From Polynucleobacter meluiroseus (GTDB lineage: Bacteria > Verrucomicrobiota > Verrucomicrobiia > Opitutales > UBA953): a stretch of 29,983 bases of DNA. Both the position numbers and the translations under genes were made by a program. Positions 27,824 through 29,628 of this stretch are shown here, piece by piece. The stretch lies in assembly GCA_943323725.2 (NCBI GenBank), contig CALPIW020000001.1:1-29983 (forward strand), given 5' to 3'. Within the stretch, counting starts at the first letter, position 1; every line of letters begins with the position of its first letter. The notes beneath the pieces are model-generated. The model did not search any database. It was not told the origin of the DNA and worked only from the letters and a program-made list of their open reading frames with translations.

Positions 27824-27827
27824 AACC

Positions 27828-27988
27828 GTCCCCTGCGGTGTTCGACACCCGCGGCAGCCTCCCTTCCCTACGAACATAATATACGGGAGGTGCGACCCGA
27901 CCGGCCTCGTCCGAGCCGTGGCAACGCACCGCCCACCTAAATCCAGGAACAAGTGGAGCTCCAATCGGAATCGGCACAGGTGGGGGAC
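27828..27988 (+). ncRNA. ssrS: 6S RNA
   Basis: Folded by hand into the 6S rod: closing stem GUCCCCUGC/GUGGGGGAC, GUGUUCGA/UCGGCAC, AG-C-CUCC-CUU/AAG-U-GGAG-CU, A-rich central bubble, terminal stem GGG-A-GGUGCG/CGCACC-G-CCC; 5' CCCUG..GGUGUUCG and 3' CGGCAC resemble known 6S ends; promoter upstream and CTTTTT downstream. Confidence 0.82.
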
Positions 27989-28033
27989 CTTTTTGAGAGA
28001 CAGATTTAAGATAACGGATGGAAGATGATCGAT

Positions 28034-28250
28034 GGGTAGGGATGCGATGACATCGCATCCGTCTGACCCGAGGTAGGGTCGAGACCGCGTCACGACCTAG
28101 CTGACTCCGGCCGCGCCGTTTCGGGTAGGGCGGCGATTGCTATCGCCGCCGTTCGCAACCGAAGAAGGAAAGGCGTCGGGCCTTAGCCAAGATGGCCGTC
28201 ATTCAACGTCCATCTGCGAACGGACGTGATGGCGATCACGTCCCTACCCG
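28034..28250. repeat. Cluster of four GTAG-tagged REP-like palindromes (three +, one -; last two form an inverted doublet)
   Basis: Copies at 28034-28062, 28072-28100, 28122-28157 (+) and 28215-28250 (-), all GGTAGGG-[7-nt arm]-loop-[7-nt arm]-CC with different but self-complementary arms. Confidence 0.8.
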
Positions 28251-28272
28251 CTTTGAGTTGATGCCTTGGCCT

Positions 28273-28300
28273 AACCGCCAACCGCTATCCGCCAACCGCT
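28273..28300. repeat. Heptamer tandem repeat A(A/T)CCGC(C/T) x4
   Basis: AACCGCC AACCGCT ATCCGCC AACCGCT. Confidence 0.75.
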
Positions 28301-28311
28301 CCCACCCGCGT

Positions 28312-29628
28312 TCATCCCAACTTCAACGCCCCGCCTTCGCAGAGGCTCGGATTGCCGAAAGTCTTCATAGGATGACCGAAGCCCTGGGCGATCGCCATGA
28401 GCAGACGGTTGTGCGGCTCCTTCTTGAACTTCACCGCGCGACCGGTCTTGAAGCCAAGGCCGCCGCCGATGAGCACCCAGGGGATATCCTCGAGCGTGTG
28501 GCTGTTGCCCTTCCCGAGTTCGTTGGTCCAGATGATGGTGGTGTTGTCCAGCATGTTACCCTTGCCGTCCGGCTCCGGGGTCTCTTGGAGGCGCTTCGCG
28601 AGGTGGGCGATCTGCTCGGCGAACCAGGTGTTGATCTTGGTGAGCTTGTCGACCGAGCCGGTGTTGAGGTCCGGATCGTGCGAGAGCGCATGGTGGCCTT
28701 CGTCGATACCGATCCACTTCATGCGGGCGCCGCCCACGGAGTTGGTGAACTGGAACGTCGAGATGCGCGCCATGTCGTTCTGGAAGGCGCTGATGAGGAG
28801 TTCGGTCTGCAGGCGCGTGATCTGCGGGATACTGTCGTTCTCCAGGGGCACGCCGGGCTCCGGCGGATGCGGCACCTTGAGCGCGGCCTGCGACTGGCTT
28901 TCCTTGAGGCCACGCTCGAGCTCGCGCAGAGCGGTCGCGTGCTGGTCCAGCAGCGCGCGGTCGCCCTTGTCCACGGCCTTCGAGACCTTGGCGATATCTT
29001 CCTTCAGGCCGTCGAGGACGGAGCCGAGGTTCTCGCCTTCCTTCATCGAGCCGTAGAGCTTGTCGAAGAGTTCGTAAGGACTGGAGATGGGCGCGACGGG
29101 CTGATTGGCGCCGGCGTAGCTCCAGCGCGTCCAAGGGTCGGCGCGGTTGCCGACGGCGACGCCGATCTCGAGCGACCCCAGGCGGGTCTTGGTCTGCGGG
29201 TTCGCCTGCAGATAGGTGCGCAGCGTCTGGTCGATGGAAGGACCGCTGGCCCAGCCGGCGGGCGCGCCGCCCCCGCCCATGATGTTGCCGGGGAAGAGCT
29301 CGATGCCGGTGAGCAGGCAGCTCATGCCGCGCATGTGCGAATCGCCGTCGCCGCGGACGCGGTTGTTGACGCCCTTGAGCGTGAGCAGCTTGTCCTTGAA
29401 CGGCTCGAAGGGCTTCATGATCGCCTTAAGCTGGAAGTCCGCGCCTTCCTCGTCGGGCCAGAAAGCCGGCGGGACGATGCCGTTGGGCGAGAAGACGAAG
29501 ATGACGCGCTGGCGACGGCCGGCGGCCGGCTCGGCGGCGCCGAGCGTGGCGAGTCCGCCGAGGAGCGGCAGCGCGGCGGCCGATAGGCCGAGGCGACGGA
29601 GGAATTCGCGACGATGTTGGAGGGTCAT
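28312..29628 (-). CDS. DUF1552 domain protein, Tat-exported
   Basis: Tat motif RREFLR; FVFSPNG, GPSIDQ, HHALSH, G-x-M-L-D-N-T...NELG-x-G-N-S-H, P-x-x-L-x-GG motifs. Confidence 0.88.
   Translation of the reverse strand: MTLQHRREFLRRLGLSAAALPLLGGLATLGAAEPAAGRRQRVIFVFSPNGIVPPAFWPDEEGADFQLKAIMKPFEPFKDKLLTLKGVNNRVRGDGDSHMRGMSCLLTGIELFPGNIMGGGGAPAGWASGPSIDQTLRTYLQANPQTKTRLGSLEIGVAVGNRADPWTRWSYAGANQPVAPISSPYELFDKLYGSMKEGENLGSVLDGLKEDIAKVSKAVDKGDRALLDQHATALRELERGLKESQSQAALKVPHPPEPGVPLENDSIPQITRLQTELLISAFQNDMARISTFQFTNSVGGARMKWIGIDEGHHALSHDPDLNTGSVDKLTKINTWFAEQIAHLAKRLQETPEPDGKGNMLDNTTIIWTNELGKGNSHTLEDIPWVLIGGGLGFKTGRAVKFKKEPHNRLLMAIAQGFGHPMKTFGNPSLCEGGALKLG

Follow-up and report, generated by a model that had tools for sequence, protein, structure and literature searches.

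GTAG-tagged REP/REPIN-like repeats between the 6S RNA and DUF1552 genes of an uncultured freshwater Opitutae bacterium, and RAYT genes flanked by the same repeat family

The four palindromic units that occupy the gap between the 6S RNA gene and a DUF1552 gene are, very probably, REP/REPIN elements spread and maintained in trans by RAYTs, a conclusion drawn from sequence comparisons within the genome and across its genus. The window, i.e. the whole stretch of DNA that was analysed (29,983 nt), is the whole of contig C1 of an assembly of 1.72 Mb in 266 contigs that has 66% GC and is 78.6% complete. One genome of the genus shares 3.4 kb of identical sequence with 'Opitutae bacterium BS6' and another is 98% identical to 'Opitutia bacterium UBA7397', matches that place the window in an uncultured freshwater Opitutae lineage; the public runs that contain the locus are lake, freshwater and estuary metagenomes.

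Four hairpin units in a convergent intergenic gap

The left neighbour of the repeats, and separate from them, is the 6S RNA gene (27827..27990, plus strand; Rfam RF00013, 48 bits, with the gathering score at 46.4), which alone was found by a gathering search of the window with Rfam. The right neighbour, convergent with it across a gap of 321 nt, is the DUF1552 gene (28312..29628, minus strand; Pfam PF07586, E 3.7e-79). Four units of the form GGTAGGG-stem-loop-stem-CC lie between the two genes at 28035-28248. An earlier note on this DNA, made from the sequence without database searches, had reported four GTAG-tagged hairpins at 28034-28250, and all four were recovered there. The unit pattern has four matches in the window versus 0.41 expected, a count that was reached in one of 100 shuffles.

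Unit 1 (28035..28060, plus strand) consists of the GGTAGGG head, a perfect 7-bp stem (ATGCGAT/ATCGCAT) with the loop GAC, and CC. Unit 2 (28072..28097, plus strand) has the same head, the arms TCGAGAC/GTCACGA, the loop CGC, and CC; the earlier note gave the sequence of these arms correctly and is corrected in that the stem contains one A.A mismatch, which is typical of its class. Units 1 and 2 form a tandem composite of about 63 nt (28035..28097, plus strand), a recurring module with blastn matches elsewhere. Unit 3 (28124..28150, plus strand; stem CGGCGAT/ATCGCCG, loop TGCT) and unit 4 (28222..28248, minus strand; stem ACGTGAT/ATCACGT, loop CGCC) have the GGTAGGG head, CC after the stem and the tail GTTCGCA in common, and together they constitute a REPIN-like inverted doublet of 129 nt (28122..28250) with heads outward and a 57-nt spacer. 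The identical flanks of units 3 and 4 (CGGGTAGGG ... CCGTTCGCA) and the 57-nt gap between them had been described correctly, as had the three stem positions (1, 2 and 4) at which they differ, every one of them compensated on the other arm. The loops, which had been called completely different, differ at two of four positions. The CTGAC that follows both units 1 and 2 does not mark a subtype as had been suggested, for the tails vary among other copies of both classes (CCGTTCG, CCGCC or CCGGCTG after ATGCGAT copies; CATAGC, CCTAGC or CCTCGC after TCGGGAC copies).

In each unit the GG that follows GTAG pairs with the CC that follows the stem, so that the real stem is 9 bp long and GGTAG is unpaired. 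Folded as single-stranded DNA, units 1, 3 and 4 are better than shuffled sequences (z -3.0 to -4.3) and unit 2 is weak (z -1.5), while the doublet of units 3 and 4 forms one long imperfect hairpin (-42.3 kcal/mol, z -6.9) whose ends are terminal inverted repeats (CGGGTAGGG ... CCCTACCCG). As in REPs, the palindromes are short (within 20-40 nt) and form stem-loops (7-bp stems plus GG/CC, loops of 3-4 nt), with an unpaired GTAG tag at one end; the GGTAGGG head is present in all four units of the window and in all 165 units of the genome. The cluster is most likely a BIME-like mosaic, assembled from a tandem heterodimer (units 1 and 2) and a heads-outward doublet, or REPIN (units 3 and 4). A CRISPR array was also considered and rejected, as sequence, orientation and spacing vary among the four units.

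A dispersed, mostly intergenic repeat family

The head GGTAGGG occurs at 320 sites in the genome, and at 165 of them it is followed by a stem of 6-7 bp with at most one mismatch and a loop of 3-6 nt. The stem is perfect in 103 of these 165 units and followed by CC in 133. The reversed genome, as a control, yields 16 units, none with a perfect stem, and 42 permuted heads yield a median of 7; the highest counts among permuted heads belong to GGGTAGG (63) and GTAGGGG (37), which are the motif shifted by one base, and the next highest is 25. The excess of 165 over 16 and 7 excludes chance palindromes. The further copies for which the earlier note proposed a search are thus present in the genome, where they are strongly intergenic, and more are present in its relatives. 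The census is an underestimate: 36 of the 165 units have a contig end no more than 300 nt away versus 9% expected, indicating that the assembly breaks at the repeats. This explains where these metagenome assemblies break.

Altogether 79 distinct stem/loop combinations occur in the genome, among them recurrent classes such as ATGCGAT-GAC (15 copies), TCAGCAC-TGC (11), GCACGA-TTCA (9) and TCGGGAC-CGC-GTCACGA (9). The class of unit 1 is the commonest of all. The class of unit 2, with the consensus arms TCGGGAC and GTCACGA, carries the same mismatch in every copy, and the class of unit 4, ACGTGAT, recurs with the loops CACC, TGCC, TACC or CACT. Since recurrent classes are conserved elsewhere, the units of the window represent four classes and not one structure drifting under structural constraint. 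The earlier note had taken four different stems within a short interval as a sign of selection on structure and not on sequence; what is found instead is four distinct sequence classes, each conserved genome-wide and genus-wide.

Copies are dispersed and mostly extragenic, as REPs are: 149 of the 165 units are fully intergenic in a genome of which 83% is predicted to be coding, counts that are approximate because the test rests on a crude ORF filter based on GC3. Another 12 units have more than half of their length in predicted coding sequence, and these may be intragenic REP insertions as reported for Opitutus terrae, or errors of gene calling. Per kb, convergent gaps contain 1.39 units, tandem gaps 0.41 and divergent gaps 0.18.

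The units are arranged in 76 clusters of one to five, usually two to five, ten of which contain four units as in the window and 29 of which are single units. Pairs less than 120 nt apart comprise 40 in direct orientation, 39 with heads outward and eight with heads inward. The exact 26-mer that constitutes unit 1 occurs 15 times in its own genome and 12-29 times in each of four sister genomes, with no occurrence in the reversed control. The composite of units 1 and 2 has 67-nt blastn matches of 80-90% identity on contigs C134 (twice), C239 and C15, and matches of 66-71 nt with 91-93% identity in other species. Copies of the doublet of units 3 and 4, about 125-129 nt long, are dispersed on contigs C211, C212 and C138, and sister genomes contain it at many unrelated sites as matches of 125-130 nt with 77-83% identity. 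Inverted doublets therefore recur as whole units, both as the 39 heads-outward pairs and as these dispersed copies. That the units might be MITEs of an unrelated transposase (e.g. of the DDE type), or else GC-rich palindromes that arose by chance, is extremely unlikely. The terminal inverted repeats of the doublet are indeed MITE-like, but many units stand alone (29 of the 76 clusters) and the only gene consistently flanked by units is that of a RAYT (see below), while chance is excluded by the reversed and permuted-head controls.

Turnover of the gap and transcripts of its neighbours

The interval from the 6S RNA gene (ssrS) to the DUF1552 gene was compared across 27 species, as the earlier note had proposed, and the presence of units does differ between them. 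Synteny of the two genes is conserved across the genus; the content of the gap is not. The orthologous gap mostly measures 105-371 nt (one value of 6 nt is probably an anchor artefact) and holds from zero to four units of differing classes, which indicates that the site has turned over. Several species have gaps without any unit. Units 3 and 4 are intact in genomes G066 and G016, of which the latter lacks units 1 and 2 and the former has a degenerate unit 2. All four units are also present in G049, which at 91% identity is the closest relative, but three of them have the head GGCAGGG; its unit 4 is intact and its unit 3 is degraded, with the GGCAGGG head and two further substitutions in the loop and 3′ arm. 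The G049 locus (L096, contig G049:C34, approximately 1780-1890) is orthologous to positions 28035-28130 of the window. Across the G049 genome as a whole, the C is seen in only two of the 12 unit-1 26-mers. The three parallel T-to-C changes at the G049 locus could signify immobilised units, or could be due to chance.

Intergenic hairpins between convergent genes invite the interpretation that they act primarily as RNA, either as terminators or 3′-end stabilisers of the 6S RNA and DUF1552 transcripts or as a structured 3′ extension of 6S RNA, and that they are kept by structural selection. Their position between convergent genes, the peak of REP density in convergent gaps, the stability of the stems and the co-option of REPs for such purposes in other bacteria (PMC3733652) all accord with it, as does a minus-strand terminator-like hairpin with a T-rich tail at 28184-28170 in the spacer of the doublet. 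Nevertheless this interpretation is unlikely. A T run is missing after all four units, and several species do without units in the orthologous gap. Identical 26-mers at unrelated loci, in different species and beside RAYT genes cannot be explained by structural selection at one locus. Moreover, the RNA contigs of two studies end at approximately 27976-27993, before the cluster, while a DNA contig reaches 28061, which is a weak hint in the same direction. A role of the units at the RNA level is possible as a secondary use, not as their origin; that they originated as REP/REPIN elements is the preferred explanation.

The 6S RNA gene itself is represented by metatranscriptome contigs from both studies, with word depth far above that of its flanks. 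One RNA run has no cover at 27991-28021, and no RNA contig joins 6S RNA to the repeats; cover was judged from contigs only, which would fit some read-through as well and gives neither strand nor expression level. The high depth over the units is a multi-copy signal from the whole community. Ends that bear adapters were observed at approximately 27838 and at 27976-27979, which suggest the ends of the mature 6S RNA. Intrinsic terminators were considered as candidates for the units and rejected, as a terminator scan reports none of the four. The sole match of the scan is the small hairpin in the doublet spacer (28170-28184, minus strand), which is oriented to terminate the DUF1552 transcript; approximately 0.6 such sites are expected by chance.

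RAYT genes of the same genome

The window contains no RAYT gene, as the earlier note had observed, and genome-wide searches with PF01797 and tblastn matched contigs C129 and C235 only. The RAYT on C235 (2457-2891) is complete, with 145 amino acids, and scores 83 bits with the NCBIfam model NF047646 (REP_Tyr_transpos) against a curated cut-off of 80. The RAYT on C129 is cut by the contig start, scores 59.8 bits with the same model over its 101 amino acids, and is 46% identical to the one on C235. In the Pfam family Y1_Tnp both fall below the cut-off of 23 bits (17.4 and 20.3 bits); their identity was settled by NCBIfam and by a sequence search of the PDB, and Pfam Y1_Tnp alone would have missed both. 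The C235 protein can be aligned from end to end with 4ER8, the structure of E. coli TnpA-REP (E 1.6e-8), and its HUH, WQ...DH.R and Y...NP motifs align with those of the structure.

Among 11 RAYT sequences, H69, H71, Y122, N126 and P127 are invariant, representing the HUH motif and the catalytic tyrosine. The residues of E. coli TnpA-REP that contact GTAG are W94, Q95, E100/D, H101 and R104 (PMC6006769), and at the corresponding contact motif of the 11 sequences W101, Q102, H108 and R109 show no variation and D107 and R111 hardly any.

Both RAYT genes are flanked by GGTAGGG-headed repeats, the arrangement of a REPtron. Upstream of the C235 gene, in gene orientation, is a heads-inward doublet of an ACGCCTC and a CGGGCTC unit, both with the loop TCC, and downstream is the same ACGCCTC/CGGGCTC doublet together with a third unit; the C129 gene is followed by a GCGCGA/GCGTGG doublet. 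These classes are other than the four of the window. No cognate RAYT for any of the four window classes was found in this 79%-complete assembly, which breaks at repeats.

RAYT lineages and stem classes across the genus

RAYT genes flanked by the same repeats, which the earlier note proposed to look for, are present throughout the genus. A profile of the 11 RAYTs has strong matches in about 32 of 61 genus genomes, with up to four per genome. Each of the 51 near-full-length RAYT genes of the genus is flanked by GGTAGGG hairpins at distances specific to its clade (e.g. a sense unit 50 nt before and an antisense unit 2 nt after the gene), and the RAYT is the only gene that units flank consistently. 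Stem class follows the RAYT tree: about 15 classes were distinguished, a separate one for each of its well-supported clades. When 19 labels for the flanking stems were placed on the tree, 18 changes were required, which is the minimum, while shuffled labels required at least 35. Sister clades of RAYTs carry sister stems, such as TCAGCAC, ACAGCAC and GCAGCAC. Because orthologous loci share their flanks by descent, the pattern signifies a stable pairing of RAYT lineage with stem class and is no evidence of independent co-evolution.

Two of the four window classes are found beside RAYT genes of sister species. RAYTs bordered by the class of unit 1 occur in G022, G075, G007 and G061; those bordered by the class of unit 2 occur in G022 and G010, where the repeat stands 70 nt upstream and 11 nt downstream of the gene. 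For the classes of units 3 and 4 (CGGCGAT-TGCT, ACGTGAT-YRCC), a search of the 61 genus genomes revealed no RAYT with such flanks. The doublet that lies downstream of the ATGCGAT-type RAYT has the same layout as the doublet of units 3 and 4 with a spacer of similar length, and the two share the TGCGAACGG junction and part of the spacer sequence; furthermore, in the dispersed copy on contig C211 an ATGCGAT unit replaces unit 3. From this shared doublet architecture and the C211 copy, we infer that the ATGCGAT-type enzyme may also serve the doublet of units 3 and 4.

The same comparison bears on the origin of the window cluster. Units 3 and 4 both point outward, in the manner of REPs on either side of a RAYT, and the earlier note had raised the idea of a relic REPtron, in which a RAYT once lay between the flanking repeats and was then deleted. 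RAYT pseudogenes do exist in the genus (G010:C73, G001:C54). A relic is nonetheless very unlikely, for neither a RAYT nor a fragment of one was found in any of the 27 orthologous intervals, the 57-nt spacer matches in length and in part of its sequence the non-coding doublet downstream of ATGCGAT-type RAYTs, and copies of the whole doublet are dispersed elsewhere. The cluster is better explained by REP/REPIN elements served from a distance.

The two pseudogenes are still flanked by their REP classes. One (L151, G010:C73:1227-1676) has in-frame stop codons, and the other (L014, G001:C54:16837-17130) is without its N-terminal half; their presence in sister species is consistent with ongoing loss of RAYT genes. 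Many genus genomes also have weak matches to the RAYT profile (E 1e-6 to 1e-9) within frames mostly of 300-340 amino acids, for example G049:C193:15820-16164 and G042:C64:55164-55514. These frames may belong to a second, longer Y1/HUH family without GGTAGGG flanks.

Beyond the genus, at least 446 relatives of these RAYTs occur in Verrucomicrobiota, Lentisphaerae and Kiritimatiellae. At 50 of the best 80 of these loci, a perfect hairpin with 8 bp or more comes after GTAG, and the units at the gene ends are headed by GTAGGG in all but two of those loci.

Comparison with known REP-RAYT systems

REPs tagged with GTAG have been described in eight phyla (Di Nocera, De Gregorio and Rocco 2013, PMC3733652). 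Opitutus terrae, a verrucomicrobium, has several co-existing REP families, designated GTAG-17 to -20, which flank RAYT genes; sub-families differ by complementary changes of the stem, dimers are both head-to-head and tail-to-tail, and the repeats prefer convergent and unidirectional gaps (PMC3733652). The repeats described here resemble them in phylum, in the unpaired GTAG followed by a stem of 6-9 bp, in the co-existence of families and in the RAYT flanks. They differ in their host, which belongs to a genus of uncultured freshwater Opitutae with BS6 and UBA7397 among its members and genomes of about 2 Mb, and in having an invariant 7-mer head, GGTAGGG, and about 15 lineages of RAYT and stem class in one genus; the comparison with O. 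terrae was made at the level of the published description. Since GTAG-tagged REPs with RAYTs are known from O. terrae and elsewhere, the system belongs to a kind already described. The earlier note's proposal of an uncharacterised verrucomicrobial REP family mobilised in trans is accordingly supported by the evidence as far as a RAYT acting in trans is concerned, and not in respect of the family being uncharacterised as a kind. What is unusual is the number of RAYT/stem-class lineages in one genus of genomes of about 2 Mb, and likewise the surplus of stem classes over RAYTs in the fairly complete genome G075 (see below).

In Pseudomonas, each RAYT is paired with its own type of REP or REPIN (PMC3116915, PMC3337134). 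The present system is like the REP/BIME system of E. coli and the REPIN-RAYT systems of Pseudomonas (PMC3116915, PMC3337134, PMC5581495) in combining GTAG with a hairpin, in its mosaic clusters and inverted doublets, in its low-copy RAYT flanked by its own REP type, and in the conserved HUH, WQ...(E/D)H..R and Y...NP motifs. It is unlike them in having shorter stems without bulges (7 bp plus GG/CC) and a short RAYT (about 145-165 amino acids), with up to four divergent RAYTs in a small genome; in sequence, the resemblance to E. coli TnpA-REP is low (full-length E 1.6e-8). The RAYTs share with IS200/IS605 TnpA (Y1, PF01797) the HUH/Y1 fold family and the general mode of recognition of single-stranded hairpins. 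In contrast to these transposases, they score below the Pfam cut-off and reach only 12-15 bits with the NCBIfam model transpos_IS200, for which the cut-off is 55; their genes are not identical insertion sequences in high copy number, and their flanks are short REPs, not IS ends.

The analysis adds a well-documented REP-RAYT system from an uncultured freshwater genus of Verrucomicrobia. It also warns annotators that structured intergenic blocks of this sort are repeats, not RNA genes.

Proposed mechanism

According to the account given in PMC5581495, which cites Ton-Hoang 2012 and Messing 2012, the E. coli RAYT binds the REP hairpin in single-stranded DNA, reads GTAG, and cleaves and rejoins the DNA. 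As this mechanism is known for E. coli TnpA-REP and the residues are conserved here, REP/REPIN elements with RAYTs in trans are held to be most likely. The units are GTAG-tagged, short non-coding palindromes that form hairpins when the DNA is single-stranded. By analogy with E. coli TnpA-REP, a RAYT (an HUH/Y1 tyrosine nuclease) encoded elsewhere would recognise the unpaired GTAG head together with the hairpin, and would then cut and rejoin the DNA of the unit. The cluster has probably piled up in a 'safe' gap between two convergent genes, where insertions would be tolerated. Cleavage and mobilisation of these units by the RAYTs are predicted from the same analogy, for which the differing unit content of the orthologous gap in 27 species is indirect evidence; any role at the level of the host is putative.

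How the pairing of RAYT and stem class relates to mobilisation is a further matter. Individual genus genomes have a dozen or more REP classes and two to four RAYT genes. In G075, which is 91% complete in about 20 contigs, at least 12 stem classes and two RAYTs were detected, numbers that leave a strict mobilisation of one class by one RAYT unsupported. Classes for which no cognate RAYT was detected in a genome are still base-identical across species, e.g. the 26-mer of unit 1. As a tentative explanation, which is rather doubtful at present, non-cognate RAYTs might mobilise or maintain foreign classes by way of the shared GGTAGGG head, forming a REP network with a common currency, or the units might be selected by the host. 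Either way, the genus would be a natural panel for the specificity code by which RAYTs and hairpins are matched, and about 15 closely related RAYT lineages that have one head in common and a separate stem class apiece could help to decode how RAYTs read hairpins.

A second dispersed repeat

Another dispersed intergenic repeat, one with no hairpin, lies at 28270-28300 of the window and makes up 48 arrays genome-wide. It consists of three to five tandem heptads, W-H-CCGC-Y (e.g. AACCGCC AACCGCT), and usually ends in ...ACC(T). Its 12-mer CCGCCAACCGCT occurs 60 times versus none in the reversed control; 54 of the 60 copies lie between genes and 23 have a REP unit no more than 150 nt away. The arrays are situated 7-90 nt from gene boundaries without a clear orientation, and contig depth is raised over the heptad stretch in all four runs that were compared.
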